Positions 1,486-35,457 are shown, numbered from the stretch's first letter. The stretch: DNA of 55,621 nt from Candidatus Elulimicrobiales bacterium (GCA_034927475.1 JAYFPW010000006.1:75197-130817); one strand, 5' to 3'. Notes: generated by a model not told the origin, from the sequence alone. A program made the numbers and translations.

Positions 1486-2679
1486 ATGGCAGATTTTAAC
1501 AGAACAAAACCTCACGTAAATGTGGGAACAATTGGTCACGTAGACCATGGAAAAACAACTTTAACAGCAGGTATTCTTAATGTTCTTCATCTTCAAAATC
1601 CAAACGTGAAGATTAAGGATGTTAATGAGATCGATAAAGCTCCTGAAGAAAAAGCTCGTGGGATCACAATTTCTCTTTCTCACTCAGAATATGAGACCGA
1701 GAAAAGACACTATGCTCACATCGACGCTCCAGGACACGCGGACTATATTAAGAACATGATTACTGGTGCGGCTCAAATGGACGGCGCTATTCTTGTAGTA
1801 GCAGCTACAGATGGACCTATGCCACAAACAAGAGAGCATGTGCTTCTTGCTAAGCAAGTAGGTGTGCCTCAATTCGTGGTTTTCTTAAATAAATGCGACA
1901 TGGTTGAAGATAAGGACATGCTTGATTTGGTAGAAGAAGAAGTAAGAGAACTCTTAACCAAAAATGGATATGATGGAGCAAACACTCCAATCATTCGAGG
2001 TTCAGGTCTTAAGGCTTCAGAAGCTAAAGATTTAAATGATCCTTGGGCAGCAAAAATTATTGAGCTTATGGACGCTCTTGACTCATGGATTCCAGAGCCT
2101 GTTCGTGAACTTGATAAACCTTTCTTAATGCCTATTGAAGACATCTTCACAATTGAAGGTCGTGGAACAGTGGTAACAGGAAGAATTGAAAGAGGGATGA
2201 TTAAATTAAACGAAGAAATTGAAATTGTTGGACTTACTCCAACTCAAAAAACAACTGTTACAGGTATTGAAATGTTTAATAAATCTTTAGGAGAAGGACA
2301 AGCTGGGGACAACGCAGGACTTCTTTTAAGAGGTGTTAAAAAAGAAGATTTACAAAGAGGACAAGTTCTTGCTAAACCAGGATCTATTACCCCTCATACA
2401 GAATTTGAATGTGAAGTTTACGTTCTTAAAAAAGAAGAAGGAGGAAGACATACTCCATTCTTGAATGGTTACAAACCTCAATTCTATATTCGTACTACAG
2501 ACGTTACTGGAGAATGTACACTTCCTGCAGGATCAGAAATGGTTATGCCTGGAGACACAATCAAAGGTATGCATGTAAAACTTATTGCGCCAGTAGCTCT
2601 TGAAGAGCAAGGAAGATTTGCTATCCGTGAAGGAGGTAAAACTGTAGGTGCTGGAGTTGTTACAAAAATTATCGCTTAA
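1486..2679 (+). CDS. tuf: Elongation factor Tu
   Basis: [11 protein letters not shown]-loop, DAPGHADY and NKCD motifs. Full length, 397 aa. Confidence 0.97.
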
Positions 2680-2728
2680 GAATTAAAAACTAATCGCTCT
2701 TTATAAAAAATTATTTGTAAATAAAATT

Positions 2729-3172
2729 ATGGCAGAAGATAAAAAAACAGTAACTAAAAAAGCACCAGCAAAAAAAGCTGTAGCTAAAAAGACTGTTGCT
2801 AAAAAAGCAGTCAAAAAAATTGAAGTTGAGGTAGCAAAACCTAAATCAACAAAAAAAGGTAACGAAGAAAATAAACTTCGTATCATGGTTAAGGCTTATG
2901 AGCCTAAAGTGCTTGATATTTCTGTCAAACAAATAATTGATACAGCGAAAAGATTTGATGCAGAAATTTGTGGACCAATTCCTCTTCCAATTGAAATCTC
3001 TAAATATACAGTAAATAGATCTACATTTATTTACAAAGATGCTAGAGAACAATTTGAGATTAGAGTACACAAAAGACTCATAGATATTCTTAATCCAAAT
3101 CCAAAACTAATCGAAGCTTTAACAAGTTTATCTCTTCCTTCTGGAGTAGATATCAACGTTAAAATGGGTTAG
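2729..3172 (+). CDS. rpsJ: 30S ribosomal protein S10 with an N-terminal Lys/Ala-rich extension of about 47 aa
   Basis: The C-terminal 100 aa (RIMVKAYE...GPIPLP...FEIRVHKRLIDI) is typical S10. The N-terminus is made of AKK/VAKK repeats. Confidence 0.93.
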   Translation: MAEDKKTVTKKAPAKKAVAKKTVAKKAVKKIEVEVAKPKSTKKGNEENKLRIMVKAYEPKVLDISVKQIIDTAKRFDAEICGPIPLPIEISKYTVNRSTFIYKDAREQFEIRVHKRLIDILNPNPKLIEALTSLSLPSGVDINVKMG

Positions 3173-3271
3173 TTCGAACGAATTCTTGAAATTCTTGAAA
3201 CTTATTAATTAAATAAATCGACCAATGACTAGACTCTATAAAAGACGTCTGGTTATGTCGTACATGAATAT

Positions 3272-3880
3272 ATGAAATTTACAATTGCTGTTAAGCAGAA
3301 CATGACTCAGTTTTTTGACGAAGAAGGTGTGGTACATCCAGCAACCGTTTTGTCAGCGAGTCCTCTTACTGTTACTCAGATAAAAACAAAAGAAAAAGAT
3401 GGTTACAATGCTGTGCAAGTAGCTTCTATTCCTCAAAAGAAAGAAAGAGTTTCTAAGTCTGTTTTAGGACACACAAATGAAGCTTTTAAAGTTCTTAAAG
3501 AATTTAGAGGAGAAGTAGGAGATTTACAAAAAGGAGCAAATATCAATATTGATATTTTCCAAGCAGGAGATATTGTTACTATTTCAGGAACCTCTAAAGG
3601 AAAAGGGTTCCAAGGTGTGGTTAAAAGACACGGCTTTAAAGGAGGTTGGAATCAACACGGACAAAAACACTCCATGAGAGAGCCAGGATCTATCGGTGGT
3701 GGAGGTCGTGCCGGAGGTAAGGTCATTAAAGGTATGCGTATGGCGGGAAGAATGGGTTCCGATCGCATCACACAAAAGAATGTAAAAGTTCTTGATGTGG
3801 ATGTTGAAAATGGAATTATTCTTGTCAAAGGTGCGGTACCTGGAAAAAGAGGAACTGTTATTGAAATAACTCAAAAATAA
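3272..3880 (+). CDS. rplC: 50S ribosomal protein L3
   Basis: GTSKGKGFQGVVKRHGF motif, and its position after S10. Confidence 0.95.
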   Translation: MKFTIAVKQNMTQFFDEEGVVHPATVLSASPLTVTQIKTKEKDGYNAVQVASIPQKKERVSKSVLGHTNEAFKVLKEFRGEVGDLQKGANINIDIFQAGDIVTISGTSKGKGFQGVVKRHGFKGGWNQHGQKHSMREPGSIGGGGRAGGKVIKGMRMAGRMGSDRITQKNVKVLDVDVENGIILVKGAVPGKRGTVIEITQK

Positions 3881-3898
3881 TTATCCTAAAATAAATAT

Positions 3899-4561
3899 AT
3901 GAAAACAAAAGTATATAATCAATCAGGAAAAGAAGTGAAAGAAATTGATCTTCCAGAAAATATTTTTGGATTAGAGTTCAATGGCGATTTAGTTTCTCAA
4001 GTACTCTATATTCAAAGATCAAATAGACGCGCTGGTACAGCTCACGCAAAAGATAGAAGTGAAGTAGCGGGCGCAAATCAAAAACCATGGCAACAAAAAG
4101 GAACAGGTCGTTCAAGACACGGTTCAAAAAGATCTCCAATTTGGGTTGGAGGAGGTGTGACCCATGGTCCAAGTAAAGAAAAGAACTATAAAAAAGATCT
4201 TCCAAAAGGAATGAAGAATCAAGCGCTCTTTAATTTGCTTTCTGCAAAATTAAAAGATGGAAAGATTTTGTTTGTAGATGAAATCAAATCTACTAGCGCG
4301 AAGACTAAAGACGCTGTAGAAATTATGAAAAATATTTCTACTGTAAAAGATTTTGAAAATCTTTCTTTCAAGAAAAAAGGAAATGTTTATATGACTTTCC
4401 CTAAACTTGATTTAAATGAAAAAAGATCATTCCGAAATCTTCCTTATGTTGTGGCACACAATATGGAAGATTTAAATCCAGTTGATATCGCAAATGCAAG
4501 ATATCTTGTTATTACTAATCCAGAAGCTACTGTCGAATATCTTCAAACTAAATTAAAATAA
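3899..4561 (+). CDS. rplD: 50S ribosomal protein L4
   Basis: KPWQQKGTGRSRHGS...PIWVGGGVTHGP motif, and synteny. Confidence 0.95.
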   Translation: MKTKVYNQSGKEVKEIDLPENIFGLEFNGDLVSQVLYIQRSNRRAGTAHAKDRSEVAGANQKPWQQKGTGRSRHGSKRSPIWVGGGVTHGPSKEKNYKKDLPKGMKNQALFNLLSAKLKDGKILFVDEIKSTSAKTKDAVEIMKNISTVKDFENLSFKKKGNVYMTFPKLDLNEKRSFRNLPYVVAHNMEDLNPVDIANARYLVITNPEATVEYLQTKLK

Positions 4562-4566
4562 AAACT

Positions 4567-4902
4567 ATGGCCAAAAAAGAAACCAAAAAAACCGAAGATA
4601 AAGCAGAAAAGAAAGAAGAAATAAAAGATGTGAAAAGCTCTTTAATCCTTTCTCCTAGACTTACTGAAAAAGCCTCTAATCTTTCTTCAGGAAATATTTA
4701 CACCTTTAATGTAAAAGATTCTGCGACAAAAATTACTTTAGCTAAAGAGATAGAAAAAGCTTATAAAGTTAAACCTTTGAAGATAACAATTATCAATCAT
4801 CCAAGAGAAGCAACTTTCACAAGAAATAAACTTGGATATAAATCTGGATTTAAAAAAGCTTTAGTCACTCTTAAAAAAGGAGACAAAATTGATTTAGCTT
4901 AA
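4567..4902 (+). CDS. rplW: 50S ribosomal protein L23 with a K/E-rich N-terminal extension
   Basis: Lies between L4 and L2. The core reads SPRLTEKAS...YTFNV...KAL. Confidence 0.88.
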   Translation: MAKKETKKTEDKAEKKEEIKDVKSSLILSPRLTEKASNLSSGNIYTFNVKDSATKITLAKEIEKAYKVKPLKITIINHPREATFTRNKLGYKSGFKKALVTLKKGDKIDLA

Positions 4903-4974
4903 AATTATTAAATAATGGTTAATTAAGCCGATAAATTAATTATAAAATTTCGAGAGAAATTTTTAGAAAAAGAT

Positions 4975-5814
4975 ATGAAAAAATATAAACCAACAACACC
5001 GTCACGCAGAACCATGACTGGTATTGAATACAGAAAAATTCTGACAGAGAAAAAACCTCTTAAATCTTTAACTAAAGGATTTAGTAGAGGAGTTGGAAGA
5101 AATTCTCACGGAAGAATTACTTCACCTTATAAAGGGTCAGGACACAAAAGAAGTTTTAGAGATGTTGATTTTAAATATAATAAAATTGATATTCCTGCTA
5201 AAGTCGCTTCTGTTGAATACGATCCAAATAGATCTGGCTTCATCGGTTTAGCAGTTTATGCTGACGGAGAAAAAAGATATGTTCTTCTTCCAAAAGAAAT
5301 TAAAGCCGGAGACAATTTTATTGTTTCTGAAAAAGTAGACTTGGTTCCTGGTAACAGATGTATTCTTAGAAATATCCCTGTAGGAACAAATGTTTACAAT
5401 ATTGAAATCAAAAGAGGCGCTGGAGCTAAAATGGTTCGTAGTGCTGGAAGTTTTGCCCAAGTAGTTGCTCATGACAATGGCTTCACTTCCATTAAACTTC
5501 CTTCTACCGAAGTTCGTAAAATTCCAGATACTTGTTTTGCATCTATCGGATCAGTTTCAAATGATGAATGGAGATTACGTGTCATTGGTAAAGCTGGAAG
5601 AAGTAGATGGCTTGGTGTTCGTCCAAAAACTAGAGCTAAATCTAAGAACCCAGTCGATCACCCATACGGAGGAGGTGAAGGATCTCAACCAAGAGGTACC
5701 AAGAGACCAAAGACTGCAACTGGTAAAATTACAGGAGGTCGAAAAACTAGAAGAAGCAAGAAATATTCAAACCCACATATTGTTTCTAGAAGGGTTAAGA
5801 ATAGGAGAAAGTAA
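4975..5814 (+). CDS. rplB: 50S ribosomal protein L2
   Basis: GRNSHGRITS..., VRPKTRAKSKNPVDHPYGGGEG motif. Confidence 0.97.
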   Translation: MKKYKPTTPSRRTMTGIEYRKILTEKKPLKSLTKGFSRGVGRNSHGRITSPYKGSGHKRSFRDVDFKYNKIDIPAKVASVEYDPNRSGFIGLAVYADGEKRYVLLPKEIKAGDNFIVSEKVDLVPGNRCILRNIPVGTNVYNIEIKRGAGAKMVRSAGSFAQVVAHDNGFTSIKLPSTEVRKIPDTCFASIGSVSNDEWRLRVIGKAGRSRWLGVRPKTRAKSKNPVDHPYGGGEGSQPRGTKRPKTATGKITGGRKTRRSKKYSNPHIVSRRVKNRRK

Positions 5815-5817
5815 TTT

Positions 5818-5846
5818 TTGCAAAAACTAGCAAAATATATTATATT
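5818..5846 (+). promoter_or_regulatory. Candidate promoter for rpsL in the L2-S12 spacer
   Basis: TTGCAA, 17-nt spacer, TATATT. The ATG lies 12 nt after the -10 element. Confidence 0.5.
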
Positions 5847-5857
5847 TTTAAAGATAT

Positions 5858-6283
5858 ATGCCAACAATTAATCAATTAGTTAAAAATAAAAGAAAAAGAG
5901 TGGTAAAAAAGTCCAGATCTTTAACCTTGTCTCAAGGTTGGAATTCTGTTCAAAATAAAGCAAACTATTACAATTCTCCATTTAAAAGAGGTGTTTGTAC
6001 TAAAGTTACAACCACCACTCCAAAGAAACCGAACTCAGCTCTTCGTAAAATTGCCAGAGTCAGATTAACTAATCAACAAGAAGTCACAGCTTATATTCCA
6101 GGAATGAAACATAAACTTCAAGAACACTCAGTAGTTATGATTCGTGGAGGAAGAGTAAAAGACCTTGCTGGAGTTAGATATCATATTGTGAGAGGAAGAC
6201 TAGATTCAACAGGTGTAGAAAACAGAAAACAAGGCCGCTCAAAATATGGTGCTAAAAGACCAAAAGATGGAGCTAAAAAGTAA
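5858..6283 (+). CDS. rpsL: 30S ribosomal protein S12, in a non-canonical position after rplB
   Basis: MPTINQL..., [27 protein letters not shown] motifs. It carries an insertion of about 13 aa ([15 protein letters not shown]) before KRGVC. Confidence 0.95.
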
Positions 6284-6306
6284 AATTTAACAGCTAAAAT
6301 CTTTAT

Positions 6307-6345
6307 AAAAACACTCTTATTATTTAAGAGTGTTTTTATTTTACA
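6307..6345 (+). terminator. Rho-independent terminator after rpsL
   Basis: Hairpin acactctta / taagagtgt followed by tttttatttt. Confidence 0.75.
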
Positions 6346-6380
6346 ACTAAAATAGTTTAGAATTATGTTTATTTTTTTAT

Positions 6381-6409
6381 TTGCTACACACTCTCAAATA
6401 TGTTAATAT
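6381..6409 (+). promoter_or_regulatory. Promoter of the S14-S8-L6-L18-S5-L15-secY block
   Basis: TTGCTA, 17-nt spacer, TAATAT, with TG at the extended -10 position (TGTTAATAT). Confidence 0.55.
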
Positions 6410-6529
6410 ACTTTCGCTAGGGGTAATCAATATTTTGAATATAGTTTTCTATATTTTTATAAAAAATTATATTTATTTTGTTTGATATTCTTCTGGCACA
6501 AATATTATTAAAAATATTTCTAATTAAAT

Positions 6530-6715
6530 ATGGCAAAAACATCAGTTAAAGCAAGAGCAAAAAAGACTCCAAAGTTTTCTACTCGTATAGTTAGAAGATG
6601 TTTTAAATGTGGTCGAAGACACGGATATATGCGCGATTTTGATTTATGCAGAATCTGTTTTCGTGAATTAGCAAATGAAGGAATGATTCCTGGAGTAAAG
6701 AAATCATCCTGGTAA
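6530..6715 (+). CDS. rpsN: 30S ribosomal protein S14, short zinc-binding type
   Basis: 61 aa with CxxC...CxxC ([10 protein letters not shown]...CRICFRE). Confidence 0.93.
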
Positions 6716-6735
6716 TTTAAAGAAAAACAAAATAT

Positions 6736-7137
6736 ATGGATCAGATTGCAAACATGCTAGTTAGCATCAAAAATGCCGGTCTTATAAAAAAAGATCACAT
6801 AATAATTCCTCACTCAAAAATCAAAGTTTCTATTTTAGAAGTTTTGAAAAGAGAAGGATTTATTAAAACCTTTGAAGTGCTTGATGCAGGCAAAAACAAA
6901 AAACAAATTAAAATTGTTATTGAGTATACTGGAAAACATCCAAGGATCTTTCCAAAAATTAATAACATAGAAAGAGTTTCAAAATTATCAAAAAGAGTTT
7001 ATTTAGGTTACCGTGATATTCACAAATATAAATACGGTAAAGGTCTCGTAATAATCTCTACTCCAAAAGGTATTCTCACAGACAAAGAAGCTCGTAAAGA
7101 ACTTTGTGGCGGAGAAGTCTTATTTAATATTTGGTAA
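6736..7137 (+). CDS. rpsH: 30S ribosomal protein S8
   Basis: DQIANMLVSIKNA start, GGEVL near the C-terminus, and synteny. Confidence 0.95.
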   Translation: MDQIANMLVSIKNAGLIKKDHIIIPHSKIKVSILEVLKREGFIKTFEVLDAGKNKKQIKIVIEYTGKHPRIFPKINNIERVSKLSKRVYLGYRDIHKYKYGKGLVIISTPKGILTDKEARKELCGGEVLFNIW

Positions 7138-7145
7138 ATAAATAT

Positions 7146-7682
7146 ATGTCAAGAATAGGAAAACAAAATCTAAATATTCCAAGTGGTACAACCGTATCAT
7201 TTGAAAAAGGCGTCTTCTCAGTGAAAGGACCAAAAGGAGAATTGAAAAAAGATTTTAAAGAAGATTTAGTTAAAATCAATATTTCTGAAGAAGGTATCAC
7301 TAGTGAACCTTTAAGAAATGACAAGTTTTCAAAATCTCTTTGGGGAACCTATATGTCTCATATTGAAAATATGATAAAAGGCGTCAACGAAGGTTTCGAG
7401 AAAAAATTAATTATCGACGGGGTTGGATTTAAGTGGGAAGTTAAAGGAGATAAGCTCCAATTAAATATCGGATATTCCCATCCAATCTTTGTAGATATTC
7501 CAAAGACTATCAGTGTGGTAGCTGAAAAAGCAAACCTTACAGTTTCTGGAATTAATCTAGAAGACGTTTCTTTATTTGCTATGCAAGTAAGAAAAGTTAA
7601 ACCTGTCGAACCGTACAACGGAAAAGGTATTAAATATGCCGACGAGGTCGTTATTAGAAAGCAAGGCAAGAAGGCTGCCTAG
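7146..7682 (+). CDS. rplF: 50S ribosomal protein L6
   Basis: MSRIGKQ... is the typical L6 start. I chose ATG 7146, in an AAATATATG context, over the listed 7131. Confidence 0.93.
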   Translation: MSRIGKQNLNIPSGTTVSFEKGVFSVKGPKGELKKDFKEDLVKINISEEGITSEPLRNDKFSKSLWGTYMSHIENMIKGVNEGFEKKLIIDGVGFKWEVKGDKLQLNIGYSHPIFVDIPKTISVVAEKANLTVSGINLEDVSLFAMQVRKVKPVEPYNGKGIKYADEVVIRKQGKKAA

Positions 7683-7710
7683 TAAATTATTTCCTTCAAT
7701 ATAAAAAATT

Positions 7711-8076
7711 ATGAAAAAAATAATTGCAAACAGTAAAGCTGATAAAAGAAAAAAATTGCATAAAAAAATTCGTGCAAAGATTTCTGGAACAGGAGAAGTG
7801 CCACGCCTTGCAGTATTTAAATCTAATAGATTTATCTATGCTCAAATCATCAACGATGATTCAGGAAAAGTATTAGCAAGTGCTAGCGATTTAAAGACTT
7901 ATTTAGATGCAAAAATCAATAAAGTCGAATCAGCAAAAAAAGTTGGGCTTGAATTAGCAGAAAGTGCTAAAAAAGCAAATATTAAAAAAGTTGTCTTTGA
8001 TAGAGGAGGATTTCCTTTTAAAGGTCGTGTCAAAGCTTTAGCCGAAGGCGCAAGAGAAGGTGGTCTAGAGTTTTAA
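7711..8076 (+). CDS. rplR: 50S ribosomal protein L18
   Basis: PRLAVFKSNRFIYAQIIND..., FDRGGFPFKGRVKALAEGAREGGLEF. Confidence 0.95.
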   Translation: MKKIIANSKADKRKKLHKKIRAKISGTGEVPRLAVFKSNRFIYAQIINDDSGKVLASASDLKTYLDAKINKVESAKKVGLELAESAKKANIKKVVFDRGGFPFKGRVKALAEGAREGGLEF

Positions 8077-8100
8077 TTTAAAATCTTGTATATTAAATAT

Positions 8101-8709
8101 ATGTCAGAAATAAAAAAAGAAAACGTAGAAGAAATTGAAGAAGCTTTAAATGAAGAAGTGACTGAAGAAGAAGTAGAAACAGTTTCTGAAGAAAAATCTT
8201 TTCCAAAAAGAAGAGGTGTGGGTGGAAGAAAACCTTTTTCAAAATCTGGAGGAAATAGAGGTAGAGTTCCAAAAGAAAAACCAGAATTTGATTCAAAAAC
8301 AATAGATATTAGAAGAGTGACTCGTGTGGTTTCTGGAGGTAGAAGATTTTCCCTTTCAGTAGCACTTGTTGCTGGAGATAGAAATGGAAGAATTGGTTTT
8401 GGAACAGGAAAGGCTTTGGACACTCAAGCTGCTATTGAGAAAGCTTTTAAGGCTGCTAGAAAAAATATGATGACTTTAAAACTTGATAAAGATAATAAAC
8501 TTCCTCATGATGTTAAAGTTAAATATAAATCTGCAACTCTTTGGCTTACCCCAAATAAAGGAAAAGGAATTATTGCTGGATCTTCTGCAAGAACAATTTT
8601 AGCTCTTGCTGGAGTAAATGACGTTACAGCTAAATTCCATTCTGGAACTAAAAACAAAATGAATAATGCTAGAGCGACAATGAAAGCTCTTTCAGTTTTC
8701 ACTAGATAA
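8101..8709 (+). CDS. rpsE: 30S ribosomal protein S5 with an acidic N-terminal extension
   Basis: IRRVTRVVSGGRRFSLSVALVAGD..GRIGFGTGKA core. About 60 aa of E-rich leader precede it. I prefer ATG 8101 in an AAATATATG context. Confidence 0.92.
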   Translation: MSEIKKENVEEIEEALNEEVTEEEVETVSEEKSFPKRRGVGGRKPFSKSGGNRGRVPKEKPEFDSKTIDIRRVTRVVSGGRRFSLSVALVAGDRNGRIGFGTGKALDTQAAIEKAFKAARKNMMTLKLDKDNKLPHDVKVKYKSATLWLTPNKGKGIIAGSSARTILALAGVNDVTAKFHSGTKNKMNNARATMKALSVFTR

Positions 8710-8774
8710 TTATTAACTTAAAAATTTTTGGAATTATTTTAAAATTAAAATAATCTCCTCAAGATTTTAAAACT

Positions 8775-9209
8775 ATGCAAACACATCAAATAAAAAGAAA
8801 TAATCCTCTCAAAAAATCTAGACAAATTGCTCGTGGAGGTAGACGTGGAAAGCAAGCTGGTCGCGGAGGAAAAGGTCAAACAGCTAGAGCTGGAGCAAAG
8901 CTTCGTCCAGCAATGCGCGACACCATCAAAAAGCTTCCAAAGCTTCGCGGACACGGTATAAATAGATCTCACACTGTAGTTCATAGAGATCCTAAAAGAT
9001 TTGCTTCTGTAAATCTTGGTCAATTAAATGTTTTTGAAAATGGAGAAGTTGTTAACCCGACATCTTTACTTGCAAAAGGATTGGTTGAACTAAGACATGG
9101 TCACTTACCTAAAGTGAAGATATTAGCAAAAGGGGAAATTACTAAAAAAATTAAAGTTGAAAACTGTACTCTTTCCAAGACTGCAGAAGAAAAAATTAAA
9201 GCTTTATAA
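8775..9209 (+). CDS. rplO: 50S ribosomal protein L15
   Basis: G/R-rich N-terminus (RGGRRGKQAGRGGKGQTARAG), and its position before secY. Confidence 0.9.
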   Translation: MQTHQIKRNNPLKKSRQIARGGRRGKQAGRGGKGQTARAGAKLRPAMRDTIKKLPKLRGHGINRSHTVVHRDPKRFASVNLGQLNVFENGEVVNPTSLLAKGLVELRHGHLPKVKILAKGEITKKIKVENCTLSKTAEEKIKAL

Positions 9210-9221
9210 AATTATTAAAAT

Positions 9222-27205: not shown

Positions 27206-27212
27206 AGGAAAA

Positions 27213-27221
27213 TGATATAAT
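27213..27221 (+). promoter_or_regulatory. Extended -10 element TGATATAAT, 7 nt before ATG 27228 (leaderless candidate)
   Basis: The -10 element ends at 27221 and the A of the ATG is at 27228. Confidence 0.5.
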
Positions 27222-27227
27222 TTTATT

Positions 27228-27593: not shown

Positions 27594-28224
27594 AAAATCT
27601 AAGTCTTTAGAAAATAAAAGTGAACTAGTAAGAGCTAAAGAAAAAGCTAAAATTATTGATAACTTGCCAATCCAAATCTTGGAGGGTCGTTCAATTTCTC
27701 TTTTAGAAATATCTTCTGATTATGATATAGAAGATTTTTACAATTTAGTTAATTCTAATGAAGATTTCTCTCATTTTGTTTCTAGAGGGTTTAAGAATAA
27801 TCAAGATTTTGAAAGTTTTAAAGAAGAAATAGCTAAATGGTTTAATTCACGTACTAATTTTATATTTTTATGTAAACGAAAAACTGAAAACCTAGCTTCT
27901 TTCGGTGTTGTTATTTTGTATGATTTGAACACCTTAAAAGATGAGGTAAGTTTATCTGTCTTTTTGGAAGAAGAAAAAAGAAACTCTCAAATATTTTCAC
28001 AAATATTTTTATTAATCTCAGATTTTATTTTTAATAAATTAGATATAGAAAGTGCTAAATTTGAGATTTATTCCGATAATGAATATATGTTGAATATGGT
28101 TAGAAAAAGAGAGAAATTCGGAGTAAAAGAAGAAGAAAGTTCCAGAAAAGATTTAAAGAAATTTACTCTATCCAAAAATGAAGGAAAACATCTACTTTTT
28201 AAATTCAAAGATCTTTATTTGTAG
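27580..28224 (+). CDS. GNAT-like (RimJ/RimL-type) acetyltransferase-fold protein with a degenerate acetyl-CoA motif (tentative)
   Basis: The layout ISLLEIS..D..DFYNLV...FIFLC.....ASFGVVILYDLN...EVSLSVFL...IFSQIFLLISDFIFNKLDIESAKFEIYSDNEYMLNMVRK..FGVKEEE follows the Acetyltransf_3 pattern. The usual R/Q-x-x-G-x-G/A motif is absent. Confidence 0.45.
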   Translation: MENFKKSKSLENKSELVRAKEKAKIIDNLPIQILEGRSISLLEISSDYDIEDFYNLVNSNEDFSHFVSRGFKNNQDFESFKEEIAKWFNSRTNFIFLCKRKTENLASFGVVILYDLNTLKDEVSLSVFLEEEKRNSQIFSQIFLLISDFIFNKLDIESAKFEIYSDNEYMLNMVRKREKFGVKEEESSRKDLKKFTLSKNEGKHLLFKFKDLYL

Positions 28225-28269
28225 AATTTATTTTTTGTGGACAACTTTTGAAAAATATGCTGGGTATAA

Positions 28270-28278
28270 TGATATAAT
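28270..28278 (+). promoter_or_regulatory. Extended -10 element TGATATAAT; a second TATAAT lies at 28265-28270
   Basis: Read directly. Lies upstream of ATG 28316. Confidence 0.4.
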
Positions 28279-28315
28279 TTATTTATAAATTACAAGTAAT
28301 AAATTTATTATAAAT

Positions 28316-31300
28316 ATGCTCAAAAAATTTTATAAGCTCTTTCCTTTTGTTTTAGTTTTTTCTTTTATATTTATTTCAACTGCTTCTGCTCTCACAGTCC
28401 CTGCAGGGTGGTATAACTATTCTGTGGCTGGTACATCATTTTCCGCTAAAGCTTGTGATAGACCAGAAGGAGCTTTCTCTGGAACTAAAAACTGTATTGC
28501 AGATATAGTGACAAATAGTGCTTTAGATAAAGTAGATGTTTCTTATTCTGACCAAGATCTAGGACAAACTTTAAAGTTGTATAAAGATACCACATCTGTC
28601 TCTACAAATCTTTTGGTAACTAGTTCTTCTAATACCTGTACACCTTCTACTCCTTGTGTATATAAGGACAAACCTTCTTGGTCTGCGTCGACAGGATTAA
28701 AAACTAGACAGTACATTGTTAACGATGAAACAACTGATAGTTCGGCAGCTATTTATAATATCACCCTCTCCTACGCGCCAATTGGAATCACAGGGCTAGT
28801 GGACGGAGCAAATTTTACTTGGGGTAATTCTTTACCTTTAAATAAAACTGTGAATATTACTTGTACAAATGCTACCAACATGACTCTTGATGGTGTATCT
28901 GTGGGTACAAAAAATGGTTACACCATAACATACCCTTTTACAAACACTAATAGCAGTACAAATACAATAACAAAAACTATTGTATGTACAAATATTGGTG
29001 GGACAACAAATCAACAAACTAGAACTTTTAATCTTCCAGGACAAATATCTGGAACCATAACAGCTACAAACTGTACTATCGCTAATGGAGCAAGCACTTG
29101 TAATTCTACTGTAAGCTGGAATACTATTAATCCCGGTAGTACTATTTCACAAGTCACAAGTAATTATCCTTCAGCTGGAACGGTCATTTCTAACACAAAT
29201 ACAAACTCTCAATCTATAGCTATACCGTACTCTTCTAGAGCTTTCTTTTTATATAACGGCGGAGCAAAACTTGATGAAGCTACAGCTGTTGCTACTTGTG
29301 CTACTGGCACAAGTTGGAATGCTTATCAGGGTAAATGTACTCCAGCTCCAACTACCACTTTGACTGGTGCTAACTGTACTATAGCTCTAGGTGCTAATAG
29401 TTGTACTACCACAATTAATTGGAGTGTGACAAATCCTGCAGGCACTACTGCTGTCACCAGTAATTATCCAGCAGCAAATACCAGTATTGGTACCACTCAT
29501 ACTGGATCTGCGAGTGGTGTCACTATCCCATATGCTTCAAGAAGTTTTTGGCTTTATAACGGAGGAGTGCAAAAAGCGACTCTAACAGTCAACGCTCAAT
29601 GTTCTTCAGGACAATGGAACGCTTCTTTAGGAAAATGTGCTGTAGTTTGTCCTACTGCTTTAAATCAGGTTCCTAGTTCATCAGGCACAAGTTGTGTATG
29701 TAATCCTTCAACTTATGTAAAAGACTCAACTGGCTTTTGTCACGCACCTTGTGTAGATTCGACTTGGAATGAGACCACAAGGACTTGTACCGCTCCAGTA
29801 CCGTCTATTTCAGCTGCAGGTTGTACAATTTTAGGAAATGCAAATAGCTGTAATACTACTTTGACTTGGAGTATGACTAATCCTGTAGGCCCCACTGCTG
29901 TCACCAGTAACTATCCAACAGCAAACACCAGTATTGGTACCACTCATACAGGATCAATAAATATTGCTATACCATATTCTTCAAGGGCTTTCTTTTTGTA
30001 TAACAATAGTATTGAGAGAGCTAAAGTTATTCCAACTGCCACCTGTATCAACGGTACTAATTGGAATGGAAGTGTTTGTGCTTGTCCTGCAGACACTACT
30101 TGGGATGCAACAAGTAAAACTTGTAAACCTGTGATTCCTAGTTTGACTGCACCAAACTGTACAATCTTAGGAAATGCAAATAGTTGTAATACTACTGTTA
30201 CCTGGAGTGTGACAAATCCTATCAGCTCTACAGCACTGACAAGTAATCTTCCAGCGGCAAATACTGTTCTTTCTACTGCCAACTCTGGAACCTTAACCCA
30301 ATCAGTTCCTTATTCATCAAGAAGTTTTTATTTATACAATAATAATATAGAAAGAAAAGTTGTCACGACTTCCGCTACTTGTATAACGGGGACAACTTGG
30401 AATGGAAGTACTTGTGCTTGTCCTGCTGGACATCTTTGGAATGCAACTTCAAAAACTTGTAATAAAATGACTGGTACATTAACACCTAGTGCTACCACTT
30501 GTTCTATAGCTGCAGGAGCAAGTAGTTGTAATGTGAATTTGGCTTGGAATACTACAAATCCAATCGGAACATCAGCTGTCACCAGTCCAACCAATGATGC
30601 TGGAACTTTGATATCCACAACTGTAGCTACAGGAAATACTGGAACTAAGTCTGTCGCCATCCCTTATTCAACAAGAACCTTCTTCCTTTACAACAGCTCT
30701 ATTCAACTCGCTTCCACCACTGTAAAAGCTACTTGTGTTAGCGGTTCAAGTTGGGACGCAACTGCTAAAAAATGTTCATTACCTTCAGGTACCATCACAG
30801 CTCCAAACTGTACTATCGCTTACGGAGCTTCCAATTGTAACACTACCTTGACCTGGAACACTGTGAACCCAATCGGAACATCAGCTGTCACCAGTAATCT
30901 TCCAGCAGCCAATACTACAGTTGCTACAGGAAACTCTGGATCTGTAACTGCTGCAGTTTATTATCCAACCAGATCTTTCTATCTTTATAATAATGCTGTA
31001 GAGAGAGCGCAAATTACAGCAAATTCTACCTGTAATCCAGCCAATAGGACTGTTTGGGATGGAAGCAAATGTGCTTGTCCAGCAACAGCTCCAATTTGGG
31101 ATGCGACAAATGGATATTGTAGAAAAGAATGTTACTTCGATCAAAATTGGAATCCAGCTACAAATCAATGTGAAAATAAATGTGCGCAAGGTCTAGTATA
31201 TGTACCAGCAACAGATAGTTGTGAAAATATAAATAGACAACCTATTTGTACTTGGAAAGATATGACCTTTAAAGATGTAAGCTGTGATATTCTTTCTTAT

Positions 31301-31858
31301 CCATGTAGTGACGGCACAAGATCTACCTTTAATGTTGTTCATCAAAATAGCGCTCAAAACAAAACAATTCAAAGTGCAAACTCAACATATCAAAGTCCAA
31401 ATCAATTCCTTTGGCAAGATGGACAGCTTCGATACGATTATGTTTGTCCAAATAATACTTGGACAGCTACAGCATTAAAGAGGCCGTACACACACTTTGT
31501 GACTTTTGAAGTTTCAGCAGGACAGGTTCGAAAAGATTCTACTATTAATCTAAGTTGGAATGTTCAATTACCAAATGCAAGTTGTAAAATAGTTGGAACT
31601 TCGCTTAAAGATGGTAGAGAAATGTTTAATTCTGCGAATTACCAAAAAATTAGAGATAATCTAACCACGCCAATCACTTCGGTTACACCAGGATCTTTAA
31701 ATTATTCTAGAGTAGGCGATCATGAATCTTTAATGTCAGGTTATCTAAAAGTGTCTGAGTCTATGAGATTTACAGCGAGCTGTGTCGATACCGGATACTC
31801 TAAAGGATATTCTCAGCTCGTCCGCGATGTTTATGTAATAGACGAAGCTGATAGATAA
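28316..31858 (+). CDS. Large secreted Cys-rich tandem-repeat surface protein (1180 aa)
   Basis: Signal peptide (FVLVFSFIFISTASA). Six repeats of about 100-110 aa have the form NCTI..GA.SCNTT.TW...NP.G.TAVTSN.PAANT....G......IPYSSR.F.LYN........C..G..WNG..C.CP....W.A....C. A further C-terminal domain follows. Confidence 0.75.
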   Translation: MLKKFYKLFPFVLVFSFIFISTASALTVPAGWYNYSVAGTSFSAKACDRPEGAFSGTKNCIADIVTNSALDKVDVSYSDQDLGQTLKLYKDTTSVSTNLLVTSSSNTCTPSTPCVYKDKPSWSASTGLKTRQYIVNDETTDSSAAIYNITLSYAPIGITGLVDGANFTWGNSLPLNKTVNITCTNATNMTLDGVSVGTKNGYTITYPFTNTNSSTNTITKTIVCTNIGGTTNQQTRTFNLPGQISGTITATNCTIANGASTCNSTVSWNTINPGSTISQVTSNYPSAGTVISNTNTNSQSIAIPYSSRAFFLYNGGAKLDEATAVATCATGTSWNAYQGKCTPAPTTTLTGANCTIALGANSCTTTINWSVTNPAGTTAVTSNYPAANTSIGTTHTGSASGVTIPYASRSFWLYNGGVQKATLTVNAQCSSGQWNASLGKCAVVCPTALNQVPSSSGTSCVCNPSTYVKDSTGFCHAPCVDSTWNETTRTCTAPVPSISAAGCTILGNANSCNTTLTWSMTNPVGPTAVTSNYPTANTSIGTTHTGSINIAIPYSSRAFFLYNNSIERAKVIPTATCINGTNWNGSVCACPADTTWDATSKTCKPVIPSLTAPNCTILGNANSCNTTVTWSVTNPISSTALTSNLPAANTVLSTANSGTLTQSVPYSSRSFYLYNNNIERKVVTTSATCITGTTWNGSTCACPAGHLWNATSKTCNKMTGTLTPSATTCSIAAGASSCNVNLAWNTTNPIGTSAVTSPTNDAGTLISTTVATGNTGTKSVAIPYSTRTFFLYNSSIQLASTTVKATCVSGSSWDATAKKCSLPSGTITAPNCTIAYGASNCNTTLTWNTVNPIGTSAVTSNLPAANTTVATGNSGSVTAAVYYPTRSFYLYNNAVERAQITANSTCNPANRTVWDGSKCACPATAPIWDATNGYCRKECYFDQNWNPATNQCENKCAQGLVYVPATDSCENINRQPICTWKDMTFKDVSCDILSYPCSDGTRSTFNVVHQNSAQNKTIQSANSTYQSPNQFLWQDGQLRYDYVCPNNTWTATALKRPYTHFVTFEVSAGQVRKDSTINLSWNVQLPNASCKIVGTSLKDGREMFNSANYQKIRDNLTTPITSVTPGSLNYSRVGDHESLMSGYLKVSESMRFTASCVDTGYSKGYSQLVRDVYVIDEADR
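29038..31100 (+). repeat. Six in-frame tandem repeats of about 310-340 nt inside the 1180-aa gene
   Basis: Repeat starts lie near 29038, 29350, 29801, 30134, 30470 and 30783. As an example, 29449-29508 and 29896-29955 are identical at 56 of 60 nt. Confidence 0.8.
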
Positions 31859-31884
31859 TTTAAAAATAAATAGTTTTTAAGAAT

Positions 31885-31912
31885 AAAAATCACCGTAGAG
31901 GTGGTTTTTATT
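31885..31912 (+). terminator. Rho-independent terminator after the 1180-aa gene
   Basis: Hairpin aaaaatcacc / ggtggttttt. Confidence 0.7.
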
Positions 31913-31940
31913 TGACTTTATTCTTTATTTTTGCTAATAT
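31912..31940 (+). promoter_or_regulatory. Promoter of the S19-L22-S3-L16-S17-L14-L24-L5 block
   Basis: TTGACT, 17-nt spacer, TAATAT, with TG at the extended -10 position (TGCTAATAT). Confidence 0.6.
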
Positions 31941-32010
31941 TCTTTCATTAATAAATCTATCCTTATTTGACTTAATTAAAGTTAAAGTGTTTGATTTATT
32001 GTAAATAATT

Positions 32011-32370
32011 ATGACAAGATCAGCTAAAAAAGGTCCATATGTAGACGAGAGGGTTTTGAAAAAAGTTCTCGGTAAAAAACCTGAAGATACAGGAGTTATT
32101 AAAACTTGGATTCGTTCATGTACTATTTCTCCAGAAATGATTGGTTTTACTTTTGGTGTTTACAATGGCAAAAGTCATATCGAAGTTTTGGTTACAGAAG
32201 ATATGGTAGGTCACAAACTTGGTGAATTTTCTCCAACTCGTAAATTTGTTAGACACGGAGGAAAAATGCAAAAAGAAATTGATCAAAAAGCAAAGCAGGC
32301 TGAAATTGATGCAGCTAAAGCTGCTAAAAGTACAGCTTCTGATGCCAAAAAGCCAGCTGCTAAAAAATAA
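32011..32370 (+). CDS. rpsS: 30S ribosomal protein S19 with a Lys/Ala-rich C-terminal extension
   Basis: [12 protein letters not shown]..., [29 protein letters not shown]. The tail is [25 protein letters not shown]. Confidence 0.95.
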
Positions 32371-32450
32371 TTTATAAGTCAAACATTTAAAATTAAATAT
32401 AGGTTTCCAATCAATTATTTAAAAATAATGAGGACAGGAAAATAAAAAAT

Positions 32451-32780
32451 ATGAAAGCAATATTATCAAACTATAGACAAGCCCCAAGAAAAACAGCTCT
32501 AATTTCAGAGCTTATTCGTGGTAAGTCAGTAAAAGAAGCCAGAGCTATTTTGAGTAAACTTATTAAAAGAGGAGCTTTGCCTATGTCAAAATTATTAGAA
32601 TCAGCTGTAGCTAATGCTAAAAATAATGACAAAATTTCAAATACAGATGATTTAATCGTCTCTACTTATGTAAATAAAGGTAAAGTCTTAAAAAGATGGA
32701 GACCTAGAGCTATGGGTAGAGCTTTTCCTATTCATAAACATACAAGCCATATTGTTATAGAACTTAAAGAAAAAAAATAA
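32451..32780 (+). CDS. rplV: 50S ribosomal protein L22
   Basis: RQAPRKTALISELIRGKSV.EA...L and RWRPRAMGRAFPIHKHTSHI. Confidence 0.95.
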   Translation: MKAILSNYRQAPRKTALISELIRGKSVKEARAILSKLIKRGALPMSKLLESAVANAKNNDKISNTDDLIVSTYVNKGKVLKRWRPRAMGRAFPIHKHTSHIVIELKEKK

Positions 32781-32794
32781 TTTATTAAAAATTT

Positions 32795-33502
32795 ATGACA
32801 CACATAGTAAATCCATATTCACATAGAGTCGGTATCATTCGCGGATGGAAATCTCGCTGGTTTGGAAATAAAGGAAACTTTGTCTCTAATTTAAAAGGAG
32901 ATGTTTTGCTTCGTAAATATTTAGATAAAAGATTAAGAGGTATGTATGTTGCGGAAGTTGAAATCGAAAGAAGTCAAAAAGAATTTCGTGTGGCTATACA
33001 CACTTCTCGCCCTGGAATGATTATCGGTAGAGGAGGTGATGGTATTGATAAACTTCGTAAAGATATTGTCAAAGAAATGAAAAGAGCAGAGACAGAATTT
33101 CCTGCAAACTTTAAATTAGACATTGTGGAAGTAGCTAATCCAGAAGCTTCAGCTGCTATTGTAGCTCAAATGGTTGCCGATCAATTGGAAAAAAGAATTC
33201 CATTCAGAAGAGTTTTAAAAGGAACCATTGAAAAAGTTATGGCTAATCGTGAAGTCTTTGGAGCAAGAATTGCTGTTGCCGGAAGACTTGGTGGAGCAGA
33301 AATGGCTCGTAGAGAGCAAATTAGAAAAGGAGGTATTCCTCTTCAAACTCTTCGCGCAGATATCGATTTTGCTAAAGAAAAAGCATATATGCCTTACGGT
33401 ACAATCGGTATTAAAGTTTGGATTTATCGTGGCATGAAATATGAAAAAGATGCTCACACCAAAGGTTATTCAAGTGTAAATGAAGAGCTTTCCAAAAAAT
33501 AA
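32795..33502 (+). CDS. rpsC: 30S ribosomal protein S3
   Basis: VNPYSHRVGIIRGWKSRWF, KH-domain GMIIGRGG, GRLGGAEMAR. Confidence 0.96.
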   Translation: MTHIVNPYSHRVGIIRGWKSRWFGNKGNFVSNLKGDVLLRKYLDKRLRGMYVAEVEIERSQKEFRVAIHTSRPGMIIGRGGDGIDKLRKDIVKEMKRAETEFPANFKLDIVEVANPEASAAIVAQMVADQLEKRIPFRRVLKGTIEKVMANREVFGARIAVAGRLGGAEMARREQIRKGGIPLQTLRADIDFAKEKAYMPYGTIGIKVWIYRGMKYEKDAHTKGYSSVNEELSKK

Positions 33503-33526
33503 TTTTATTAATTTAATTTCAAATAT

Positions 33527-33949
33527 ATGTTATTCCCAAAAAAAGTTAAACATCGCAAATGGCAATCTGCTAGATCTTCTCTAAAGAAAGCGGCACGCCC
33601 TGAAACCAAAGGAGTCAATGTAGATTTTGGATCTTTTGGACTAAAAGCTGAAACTGATAAAAGAATCACCAGTAATCAAATCGAAGCTGCAAGACGCGCT
33701 ATGGTTCGTTACGGTGGAAAGACAGCAAAGTTTTGGATTCGTGTTTTCCCTGATAGACCTTTCACTCAAAAAGGAGCTGAGGTTCCTATGGGTAAAGGAA
33801 AAGGAGATCCAAAAGGCTATTGTGTAGAAGTTCGTCCAGGAAGAATTATTTTTGAAATCGATGGTGTTACTGAAGATGTTGCTAGAGAAGCTCTTCGTAA
33901 AGCTGGAACAAAGCTTCCAATTAAAACTAAAGTCGTGGCTAGAGTATAA
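33527..33949 (+). CDS. rplP: 50S ribosomal protein L16
   Basis: PKKVKHRK..., GSFGLKA..RITSNQIEAARRAM, MGKGKGDP. Confidence 0.96.
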   Translation: MLFPKKVKHRKWQSARSSLKKAARPETKGVNVDFGSFGLKAETDKRITSNQIEAARRAMVRYGGKTAKFWIRVFPDRPFTQKGAEVPMGKGKGDPKGYCVEVRPGRIIFEIDGVTEDVAREALRKAGTKLPIKTKVVARV

Positions 33950-33991
33950 AATACTTGAAAAACAAAGCAAAATAAGTTAATATATAAAACT

Positions 33992-34249
33992 ATGAATAAA
34001 CAAACAGTAATCAAACACAAGAAAAAAATCGACGGAGTTGTTGTATCCGATAAAATGGATAAAACTGTTGTTGTTAATGCTCAAAGATTTGTCAAACATA
34101 AAAAATATGGCAAATATTATAAAATTGATAAAAAGTTTAAAGCTCACGACGAAAACAACGAATACAAAGTTGGTGATAAAGTTACCATTGAAGAAACTCG
34201 TCCAATCTCCAAAGATAAAAATTTTAAAGTTTTAAAGAAAAGAGATTAA
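33992..34249 (+). CDS. rpsQ: 30S ribosomal protein S17
   Basis: [14 protein letters not shown]...[19 protein letters not shown]....[13 protein letters not shown]. Confidence 0.94.
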
Positions 34250-34267
34250 TATTTTAATTATAAATGT

Positions 34268-34648
34268 ATGTTACAAGCAGGATCAAATTTAAAAATCACA
34301 GATAACACTGGAGCAAAAACCGGAAGAATTATCAAAGTTCTCGGTGGATCAAAAAGAAGATACGCTTCTATTGGTGATTTAGTCTGTCTTTCAGTAAAAG
34401 TTGCTGAACCAAGAAAGCAAGTCAAAAAGAAAGACGTTGTTTATGGTATTGTCGTCCGTACTTCTAAAGAATTTAGAAGAAAAGATGGTTCATATATTCG
34501 TTTTGATGACAATGCTGTCGTGCTTGTAGATAAAGCAAAGAAAGTTCCAAAGGCGAGTCGTGTTTTTGGACCTATTCCAAAAGAAATTTCTGAAAGTAAA
34601 AATGAAAATGTTAGAAAAATTGCTACCATGGCACCTGAAGTTATTTAA
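34268..34648 (+). CDS. rplN: 50S ribosomal protein L14
   Basis: MLQAGSNLKITDNTGAK...IGD......KDGSYIRFDDNAVVL....PKASRVFGPI..E. Confidence 0.96.
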   Translation: MLQAGSNLKITDNTGAKTGRIIKVLGGSKRRYASIGDLVCLSVKVAEPRKQVKKKDVVYGIVVRTSKEFRRKDGSYIRFDDNAVVLVDKAKKVPKASRVFGPIPKEISESKNENVRKIATMAPEVI

Positions 34649-34657
34649 AATAAATTT

Positions 34658-34876
34658 ATGAAAATTAAAAAAGGAGACAAAGTAAAAATGTTGGCAGGAA
34701 AAGATAAAGGAAAAGTTGGTACAGTTTCTGTCGCTTTACCACAAGTAGACAAAGTTATTGTCGACGGTATTAATATTGTAAAAAGACATAATAAACCAAA
34801 GAAAAAAGGAGAAAAAGGGGTTATTGTCGAAGTGTCTGCTCCTATTCATGTCAGCAATGTTAAAAAAGAAGCATAA
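34658..34876 (+). CDS. rplX: 50S ribosomal protein L24 (short form)
   Basis: MKIKKGDKVKMLAGKDKGKVGTV (KOW motif), and synteny. Confidence 0.92.
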   Translation: MKIKKGDKVKMLAGKDKGKVGTVSVALPQVDKVIVDGINIVKRHNKPKKKGEKGVIVEVSAPIHVSNVKKEA

Positions 34877-34890
34877 TTTAATTTAAATAT

Positions 34891-35457
34891 ATGACAAAAG
34901 AAATAAAAAAAACAGAATATAAAGTCAAAGAAAAAATTGCTTCAGCTTTTGATCAAATGAAGTCTGAGTTTAAATATAAAAATAAACTACAAGCTCCAAG
35001 ATTAACAAAAATTACTATCTCTGTAGCTACTGGACGCGCAATGAAACAAGACAAAAAGAAAAATGAATTTGTTATAGGCAGATTGACTAAAATTGTTGGG
35101 CAAAGACCAGTTGAAAGACAAGCTAAAAAATCTATCGCTTCTTTCAAAACTAGAACAGGAGACAAAATTGGTGTAGCTGTAACCCTTCGTGGCGCAAAAA
35201 TGTATGGATTTTTAGAGAAACTTTTAAACGCTTCACTCCCTCGTACTAAAGACTTTCGTGGAATCAAAAGAACATCAGTTGATGAGATTGGAAATATTAC
35301 TTTCGGTATCAAAGAGCATACTATTTTCCCAGAAATTCATGATGAAGAATTGAAAGATATATTTGGAATGGCTGTCACTTTAACTACTACAGCTAAAACT
35401 AAAGAAGAAGCTACAAGATTTTTTGAAATAATCGGTGTTCCTCTCAAAAAAGACTAA
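34891..35457 (+). CDS. rplE: 50S ribosomal protein L5
   Basis: APRLTKITISV..G, KKSIASFKTR.GDKIGVAVTLRG..MY.FL.KL, RDFRG, FGIKEH.IFPE. Confidence 0.95.
   Translation: MTKEIKKTEYKVKEKIASAFDQMKSEFKYKNKLQAPRLTKITISVATGRAMKQDKKKNEFVIGRLTKIVGQRPVERQAKKSIASFKTRTGDKIGVAVTLRGAKMYGFLEKLLNASLPRTKDFRGIKRTSVDEIGNITFGIKEHTIFPEIHDEELKDIFGMAVTLTTTAKTKEEATRFFEIIGVPLKKD

Follow-up and report, generated by a model that had tools for sequence, protein, structure and literature searches.

In the 55,621-nucleotide stretch of Candidatus Elulimicrobiales DNA analysed here (the window), the ribosomal str-S10-spc supercluster lies on one strand, between positions 1486 and 35457, in a permuted order: tuf-S10-L3-L4-L23-L2, then S12, then S14-S8-L6-L18-S5-L15-secY-X-map-Y (X and Y being ORFans), then S7-fusA, then 15 kb of other genes, then S19-L22-S3-L16-S17-L14-L24-L5 and finally recG. 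We propose, with a probability of about 85%, that this order is genus-wide and vertically inherited, and that it results from the shuffling of five units that were already autonomous. The str-S10-spc cluster is the textbook case of a gene order frozen for billions of years.

The window is the terminal 55.6 kb of contig C4 of the source genome (G000), a metagenome-assembled genome (MAG) of 523 kb in six contigs, with about 31% GC and an estimated completeness of 97%. The source organism is an ultra-small, uncultured member of the Patescibacteria, or candidate phyla radiation (CPR), in a Paceibacteria-type lineage with genomes of about 0.5 Mb. Genes were identified by their NCBIfam matches, and those of the 15-kb stretch with Pfam. 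The original prediction, made on this DNA before the present analysis, had named the genes, their order, their plus strand and their coordinates, and the NCBIfam matches bear out all of these; its four breakpoints, S12/S7, fusA/tuf, L2/S19 and L5/S14, are likewise seen in the gene order and in independent contigs. The ribosomal units from tuf through recG are all on the plus strand (25 of 25 str-S10-spc genes co-directional), and the ribosomal genes tuf..L5 are single-copy across the 523-kb genome (tblastn). The canonical colinear order S12-S7-fusA-tuf..secY-map, present in sister families, is thus lost here. As to content, 25 of the 28 canonical genes were found, the missing ones being L29 and adk, together with L30 from its slot. 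The cluster had been described as four separately promoted blocks plus S12; the promoters are there, but the count is five ribosomal units. We call the pieces a (S12), b (S7-fusA), c (tuf..L2), d (S19..L5 with its right flank), e (S14..map) and f (T4CP-efp), and the genes are as follows.

1486-5814, plus strand: unit c, tuf, rpsJ (N-terminally extended), rplC, rplD, rplW and rplB (NCBIfam)
1486-2679, plus strand: tuf
2729-3172, plus strand: S10
4975-5814, plus strand: L2
5858-6283, plus strand: unit a, rpsL (S12), separated from rpsG (NCBIfam)
6530-13003, plus strand: unit e, rpsN (type Z), rpsH, rplF, rplR, rpsE, rplO, secY, the ORFan X520 and map (NCBIfam)
6530-6715, plus strand: type-Z S14
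9222-10484, plus strand: secY
10587-12149, plus strand: ORFan of 520 amino acids (X520, the X above), occupying the adk slot between secY and map
12194-13003, plus strand: map
13172-13891, plus strand: ORFan of 239 amino acids (Y)
14060-16720, plus strand: unit b, rpsG (S7) and fusA (NCBIfam)
14060-14527, plus strand: S7
14576-16720, plus strand: fusA
32011-35457, plus strand: unit d, rpsS, rplV, rpsC, rplP, rpsQ, rplN, rplX and rplE, without rpmC (NCBIfam)
32011-32370, plus strand: S19
34891-35457, plus strand: L5
35530-37863, plus strand: recG

We then asked whether the blocks could have been misjoined by assembly or binning. The source is a MAG in six contigs, some relatives' assemblies break just after S12 or within a repeat-rich gene of 1180 codons in the 15-kb stretch, and one relative's contig (G060:C17) shows a wrap-around artefact. 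Independent support was drawn from Logan contigs of other public runs, reached by exact-protein look-ups (SRR35946792, SRR35946794, SRR27243475, SRR34777608, SRR27460155, SRR10609206, SRR27243473, SRR35946928, SRR9598598 and SRR27243495). These contigs are colinear with window positions 851-16283 and 29533-42370 at 99.86-100% identity, and also over about 10.8-23.9 kb, across the junction of fusA with the following open reading frame (ORF), where colinearity is read from identical gene calls only. Therefore, every junction is reproduced by contigs from nine or more different Sequence Read Archive runs; these contigs tend to stop only inside the repeat-rich gene. Moreover, twelve other species have the L2-S12 junction and several have the other ones, including a 614-kb single-contig genome, and the junction spacers hold conserved promoter and terminator motifs. 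According to these results, the permuted order is real and not chimeric, and the chance that assembly made it is negligible. As for G060:C17 (L220, 9208 bp), it carries S14..L15 twice, but we do not take it for a duplication caught in progress: the 3474 bp at its start and the 3474 bp at its end are 100% identical, so that a wrap-around, seeded by internal tandem repeats of about 140 nucleotides (nt), is most likely.

The order is a property of the source genus, here labelled g1. The adjacency search covered 30 relatives; the family of g1 comprises eight genera, and 61 of its genomes were sampled out of a larger group. S12 was found in 12 congeners, and in every one of them it directly follows L2, whereas in the other genera and families it is followed by S7. 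The whole permuted order recurs in G002, the 614-kb single contig, with one surface-protein gene of 1496 codons between S12 and S14. In G007, tuf..L2-S12-S14..map-S7-fusA lie on one contig; in G009, G010 and G014, S14..map-S7-fusA-(7-12 kb)-S19..L5-recG do so; and the arrangement S14..map-S7-fusA..S19..L5-recG is seen in parts in G006, G011 and G013. Synteny thus sets permuted congeners, the single-contig genome among them, against canonical sister families, the comparison that the original prediction had called for. The sole unstable joint is that between S12 and S14, a hotspot of insertion and rearrangement within the genus: the spacer measures 246 nt in the source genome, some 0.3-0.8 kb in G007 and G008, and 5 kb in G002; in G010 and G013, housekeeping genes fill at least 15-20 kb of it. 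The insert of G002 (L029, 12362-16852) combines GDSL-lipase and endosialidase-chaperone domains in its single 1496-codon gene. In G010 (L034), rpsL is followed by at least 15 kb that include TIM, PGK, a tyrosine recombinase, ComM and an M23 peptidase, and the T4CP-like gene has been relocated upstream of S14.

Outside g1, the canonical order S12-S7-fusA-tuf..L2-S19..L5-S14..secY-map is found in the sister families represented by G019, G026, G028 and G030 and in other Paceibacteria-type MAGs. Within the family, g3 is fully canonical, with L29 and adk in place and map followed by a T4CP-like gene, and g5 keeps the canonical order with inserts of 3-7 kb at fusA/tuf, L24/L5 and L5/S14, and in some species also at S12/S7. 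The g1 order is therefore derived. Other genera are scrambled differently: g2 has tuf..L5 at one place and fusA-S14..map-S12-S7-efp, with efp on the opposite strand, at another; g4 has tuf..L5-fusA plus either S12-S7-secY or S12-S7-x-S14..L15; g19 has tuf..L5-S12, with S7-fusA elsewhere; and g20 has T4CP-tuf. Among 80 diverse loci, L2-S19 is tight in 63 of 75 and L5-S14 in 58 of 68, and the loci in which they are not tight are nearly all from Paceibacteria relatives, with inserts of 1-9 kb. The genus g1 keeps S7-fusA, lost in g2 and g4, whereas g2 and g4 keep S12-S7 and L2-S19, lost in g1. Since each scrambled genus retains ancestral adjacencies that others have lost, the family is a rearrangement hotspot. 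In one g4 contig (G040:C5; L222, about 12855-12950), the sequence immediately upstream of rpsL seems, when inspected by eye, to encode the C-terminal end of L7/L12 (...EEAGAKVELK, then stop); if this reading holds, rpoB and rpoC do not lie between rplL and rpsL there.

A tree of 14 concatenated proteins gave (g3, g19, (g2, (g4, (g1, (L140, g5))))), with Shimodaira-Hasegawa-like approximate likelihood ratio test (SH-aLRT) support of at least 98. The separate trees of S12+S7+fusA, of tuf..L5 and of S14..map each recovered g1 as monophyletic and nested in a g1/g4/g5 clade. This bears on xenologous replacement, in which the blocks would have been gained horizontally at new sites and the native copies lost. 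Horizontal transfer from close relatives is among the routes discussed for changes in operon clusters (PMC8046335), and a T4CP-like gene adjoins the cluster. However, the position of g1 in the three block trees argues against import from outside the family (transfer from a very close relative would escape such trees), the composition of the ribosomal blocks is uniform, and the T4CP-like gene is the ancestral neighbour of map in canonical-order genera, so that we regard such replacement as highly improbable. A common intermediate for g1, g2, g4 and g19, of the form tuf..L5-S12-S7-fusA-S14.., was also rejected: every block tree unites the canonical g5 with g1 and g4, and the retained adjacencies differ. 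The rearrangement histories of g1, g2 and g4 are lineage-specific, whichever branching order holds.

The biological basis of the proposal lies at the unit boundaries. We aligned the regions upstream of tuf, S12, S14, S7 and S19 from 7-11 g1 species. Across these species the predicted -35 and extended -10 boxes before the units are invariant, and conserved leaders follow them in the tuf, S14, S7 and S19 units (about 125, 120, 80 and 70 nt, respectively). The terminator hairpins keep their position in g1, but their stem sequences differ between species. The predicted signals are listed below.

1323-1350, plus strand: tuf-unit promoter, TTTGCA-16-TG-GATAAT; -35, extended -10 and leader kept in 7 g1 species
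1351-1485, plus strand: tuf leader of about 125 nt, hairpin CACTTGA...CAAGTGG followed by GTCCAATATTATTTCGCGAATAGATGTAGAAATAACAA (alignments)
5818-5846, plus strand: rpsL promoter, TTGCAA-17-TATATT, in the 43-nt L2-S12 spacer; kept in 10 of 11 g1 species
6307-6345, plus strand: intrinsic terminator after rpsL, hairpin and T-run; other g1 species have one at the same position with a different sequence
6381-6409, plus strand: S14-unit promoter, TTGCTA-17-TG-TAATAT; kept in 10 g1 species
6410-6529, plus strand: S14-unit leader of about 120 nt, with blocks GTAATCA, AATATAGTTTT and TTGATATTC (alignments)
13919-13947, plus strand: intrinsic terminator closing the S14-map unit; g1 hairpins at the same position with differing sequences
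13951-13979, plus strand: rpsG promoter, TTGCTA-17-TG-TAAAAT; kept in 9 g1 species
14005-14041, plus strand: rpsG leader element, P1 GGTGC/GCACT, GCUAGUA, P2 CCAG-loop-CUGG, GGGAA (alignment, covariation)
16747-16779, plus strand: intrinsic terminator after fusA (sequence)
31881-31913, plus strand: terminator overlapping the -35 box of the S19 promoter; hairpin in 9 g1 species, stems differing
31912-31940, plus strand: rpsS promoter, TTGACT-17-TG-TAATAT, then a 70-nt leader; invariant in 9 g1 species
35471-35504, plus strand: bidirectional intrinsic terminator after rplE, upstream of recG (sequence)

Each breakpoint had been said to coincide with a terminator and/or a new promoter. The signals were indeed found and are conserved in g1, except that the junction sequence shows no terminator between L2 and S12; S12 may therefore also be transcribed by read-through from L2. 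The word "new", on the other hand, does not stand, because canonical-order relatives have these elements too, at corresponding boundaries. Both g5 and L140, which are of canonical order, share the tuf promoter and leader; the TTGCAAAAA -35 element of the S12 promoter also precedes S12 in g5, g4 and g3; the S14 promoter and leader blocks are common to g5, g4 and g2; and a similar promoter-like motif, TTGACT/TTTACT-17-TG-nTAnAAT, lies inside the 60-80-nt L2-S19 spacer of g5, L140, g3, g2 and G019. The units therefore appear to have been autonomous before they moved.

The converse sequence of events, in which breaks fell inside operons and rescue promoters evolved later, would fit with the classical E. 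coli organization, where the L2-S19 and L5-S14 boundaries are internal to the S10 and spc operons, and with the fact that the g1 promoters stand directly after terminators. Nevertheless, promoters that came second fit poorly with the S19 promoter-like motif in the unbroken L2-S19 spacers and with the corresponding elements of S14, tuf, S7 and S12 in g5, g4 and g3, which stand at matching boundaries, and we judge this scenario quite improbable. Early promoters thus remain the preferred explanation. As regards the leaders, no Rfam ribosomal-protein leader family matched at the junctions at either the gathering or permissive E-value thresholds. The tuf and S14 leaders may correspond to feedback sites of the L4/S10 and S8 types, respectively.

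The leader of rpsG is the most structured case. In E. coli, ribosomal-protein leaders mimic rRNA: S7 acts on the rpsL-rpsG spacer, S8 on the spc mRNA and L4 on the S10 leader. Here, 92% of the cells of the rpsG leader alignment are paired, 3 of 10 pairs show compensatory changes within g1, which support the fold P1-GCUAGUA-P2-GGGAA, and the score was reached by 3 of 500 shuffles. Homologous elements with the same architecture and different stems precede rpsG in g5 and g4; the element has no Rfam match. To the eye, its GCUAGUA-hairpin-GGGAA resembles the UGCUAGUAAU-helix 43 (h43)-GUGAAUACG region of the host 16S rRNA (49810-49850), and it is therefore a plausible candidate for an S7 autoregulatory (feedback) site. 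Like the E. coli S7 site, it is a conserved structured element directly upstream of rpsG. Unlike that site, which lies within the S12-S7 transcript, it heads an independently promoted S7-fusA unit.

We propose the following scenario. The family ancestor would have carried the chain u118-S12-S7-fusA-tuf..L2-S19..L5-S14..secY-adk-map-T4CP-efp, efp being on the opposite strand, made of the units [S12], [S7-fusA], [tuf..L2], [S19..L5] and [S14..map], each with its own sigma-70-type extended -10 promoter and four of the five also with a conserved 5' leader. On the stem of g1, the units would have been re-ordered to tuf..L2, S12, S14..map, S7-fusA, then T4CP, efp and variable genes, then S19..L5 and recG. 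Each moved unit would have taken its promoter and leader along and would end in a terminator, except that S12 could also be read from L2. Expression would now rely on five promoters, together with translational feedback through unit-specific leaders. The shuffling may have been tolerated because selection for co-transcription is relaxed in slow-growing episymbionts with small populations.

How the DNA itself was rearranged can be approached from the order of the pieces. The change from u-a-b-c-d-e-f to u-c-a-e-b-f-d leaves none of the six ancestral adjacencies intact and inverts no piece; it requires a minimum of three transpositions on the same strand, or else duplication and loss in two rounds. 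The original prediction of several same-strand transpositions of separately promoted blocks holds in this sense: there is no inversion, and at least three moves or their equivalent. Our preferred route is segmental duplication with subsequent asymmetric loss of copies, in at least two rounds, since no essential gene is ever removed in this way and the strand is preserved. This route corresponds to the tandem duplication-random loss (TDRL) model, known from animal mitochondria, and to the model of selection during niche adaptation (SNAP). Indeed, as expected under SNAP and TDRL, the strand is kept, there are no inversions and no mobile elements stand at the junctions; moreover, the order c-a-e-b-f-d consists of four increasing runs, that is, two duplication-loss rounds under TDRL. 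No duplicate remnants are visible here, so that the duplication-loss route is a probable reconstruction. The SNAP model of gene-order change was set out by Brandis and Hughes (2020, PMC7055797).

Alternatively, the units could have moved by at least three direct cut-and-paste transpositions, or by excision, circularisation and reinsertion, with illegitimate recombination acting at the T-rich junctions of terminator and -35 box. The unit boundaries share a T-run and TTGC(A/T)A or TTGACT, a possible microhomology, and the tuf..L5-fusA arrangement of g4 looks like a circular permutation of fusA-tuf..L5. However, moving essential single-copy genes in one hit via very short homologies would be rare and costly, an argument made in PMC8046335, and a repeat search found no insertion sequence (IS) elements, mobile-element genes or long repeats at the junctions, the only repeats lying in the 1180-codon gene and in low-complexity lysine-rich coding runs. 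Direct transposition is therefore the less likely route, though clearly more probable than the other alternatives weighed above, and duplication with asymmetric loss keeps our preference.

Several points count against the proposal of shuffled autonomous units. The promoters, terminators and leaders are predicted from sequence conservation only, and the likeness between the S7 leader and h43 of 16S rRNA was judged by eye. The block trees disagree on how g1, g4 and g5 branched; the loosening of fusA/tuf and L5/S14 could therefore be one shared event and not a recurrent one. Finally, tblastn over the genome and the comparison with relatives gave no relic pseudogenes or duplicate fragments in support of the duplication-loss route.

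Alterations of this supercluster are already known. A survey of 204 genomes counted 163 alteration events, mostly separating whole operons (Brandis 2021, PMC8046335); 65% of the rearrangements parted whole operons and left them intact, the spc-alpha link was unbroken in 204 of 204 genomes, and the model put forward was insertion first and full disconnection later, with duplication and loss. The present case concerns the same cluster, and alteration rates are likewise raised in particular lineages. It also follows the insertion-then-separation pattern, with inserts at fusA/tuf, L2/S19 and L5/S14 in g5 and other Paceibacteria and full disconnection in g1. A 2019 paper (PMC6735719) is cited with the closest known system, which concerns the same gene cluster, and, as in the known system, a terminator and a promoter overlap at a unit boundary (31881-31940 here). 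Four features differ. Unlike the surveyed whole-operon separations, the cuts fall inside the classical str (S12/S7, fusA/tuf), S10 (L2/S19) and spc (L5/S14) operons, where they coincide with predicted internal promoters conserved in this order of bacteria. The pieces remain within 35 kb and are yet permuted, and sibling genera are permuted differently. Moreover, the spc-alpha link is broken, the block infA-L36-S13-S11-S4-rpoA-L17-L13-S9 being on a different contig (C6:91216-95464). It is thus the intra-operon cuts, the proximity of the permuted pieces and the genus-specific permutations that are unusual. Literature searches returned no description of such str-S10-spc scrambling in CPR bacteria.

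The 15-kb stretch between fusA and S19 had been described as an island. The stretch is present, but to regard it as mere inserted foreign DNA would be too simple.

16819-31858: non-ribosomal stretch with two ORFans, a T4CP-like ATPase, efp and variable surface-protein genes (Pfam)
18972-21749: T4CP-like ATPase (Pfam)
21794-22384, minus strand: efp

In g3, map still adjoins T4CP, and g4 and g5 retain map-T4CP-efp, with efp on the minus strand; the stretch is therefore partly the ancestral right flank of map, and the gene order indicates that S7-fusA was placed into the ancestral right neighbourhood of map. The surface-protein genes, among them the repeat-rich 1180-codon gene, are variable, and the gene content of the stretch differs among g1 species. 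On the other side, L5 followed by a peptidoglycan (PG)-binding protein is an arrangement kept in g5 and g2. The cumulative GC skew climbs monotonically across the ribosomal blocks (1-16.7 kb and 31-38 kb), where the plus-strand skew is positive, and is flat to slightly falling over 21-31 kb, where the skew is near zero to negative. The strand of the ribosomal units is probably the leading strand.

The permuted cluster also has altered contents. L29 (rpmC) was undetected with a lineage-specific hidden Markov model (HMM) run with --max on all six-frame stop-to-stop ORFs of at least 25 amino acids (best E = 3.9), and the L16-S17 gap in which it would sit measures 42 nt (33949-33992). A highly divergent L29 elsewhere in the genome was excluded, since the HMM gave nothing better than this E value. 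L29 was likewise undetected in 15 of 15 g1 genomes and in the representatives of g2, g4 and g5; g3 still has it, as do 11 of 12 sister families. A search of 15 g1 genomes failed to detect adk in 10 of them, the source genome among these. Between S5 and L15, where L30 would stand, no such gene was seen; a whole-genome search for it was not made. Among the proteins that are present, S10 carries a 45-amino-acid Lys/Ala-rich N-terminal extension made of 15-nt repeats (2729-2860), S5 an acidic N-terminal extension of about 65 amino acids (8086-8280), L23 an N-terminal extension of about 24 amino acids and S19 a Lys/Ala-rich C-terminal tail of about 30 amino acids (32280-32370). In a survey of CPR genomes, uL30 was missing, and uL29 was lost in the complete genomes of some Peregrinibacteria (Tsurumaki et al. 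2022, PMC9297842). The loss of uL29, the absence of uL30 from its slot and the extensions of S10, S5, L23 and S19 resemble the losses and size changes described there. In contrast to those Peregrinibacteria, the loss of uL29 here spans most of one Paceibacteria family. Gene order was left unexamined in that paper, in which the term "gene order" occurs 0 times.

As for the ORFans of unit e, Pfam gives X520 only a weak, sub-threshold DUF7660 match; a clear homologue of X520 turned up in G006 alone (59%), and G007 has a weak match at 32%. The 239-amino-acid protein Y has no match in NCBIfam or Pfam and, by tblastn in the genomes checked, is present only in the source genome and G006. It had been labelled BtpA-like; because it matches no family, this label is unsupported.

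The rest of the window holds a complete 16S rRNA gene (48475-49997). No 23S rRNA was found in the 5.6 kb between it and the contig end, and no tRNA genes within the window; the rRNA genes may be unlinked here. Downstream of recG and of a PG-binding/Listeria-Bacteroides-repeat protein lies a phosphoketolase (XFP) gene (38785-41355), which is followed by acetate kinase in an independently assembled contig.

A broader view, which we hold tentatively as a possibility and less firmly than the proposal itself, is that the five units are free-standing promoter-leader-terminator cassettes that have been repeatedly re-ordered in at least three to four lineage-specific histories (g1, g2, g4, g19/g20). 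Colinearity would be kept by co-transcription and would collapse once the units become self-sufficient through internal promoters and feedback leaders, including the h43-mimicking S7 leader. Internal promoters and leaders that pre-adapt the cluster for break-up would be a testable explanation, and the leaders are candidate new ribosomal-protein leader RNAs in CPR bacteria. There is also a practical consequence. The set of 16 syntenic ribosomal proteins on one contig serves as a marker in CPR phylogenomics and binning checks; the single-contig assumption fails in this family, where the markers lie in three separate blocks and the permutations are fixed and reproducible. The canonical g3 and g5, set against the scrambled g1, g2, g4 and g19, provide comparative material on what holds operons together. 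If this broader view is right, the family would be a natural experiment on what maintains the colinearity of str-S10-spc.

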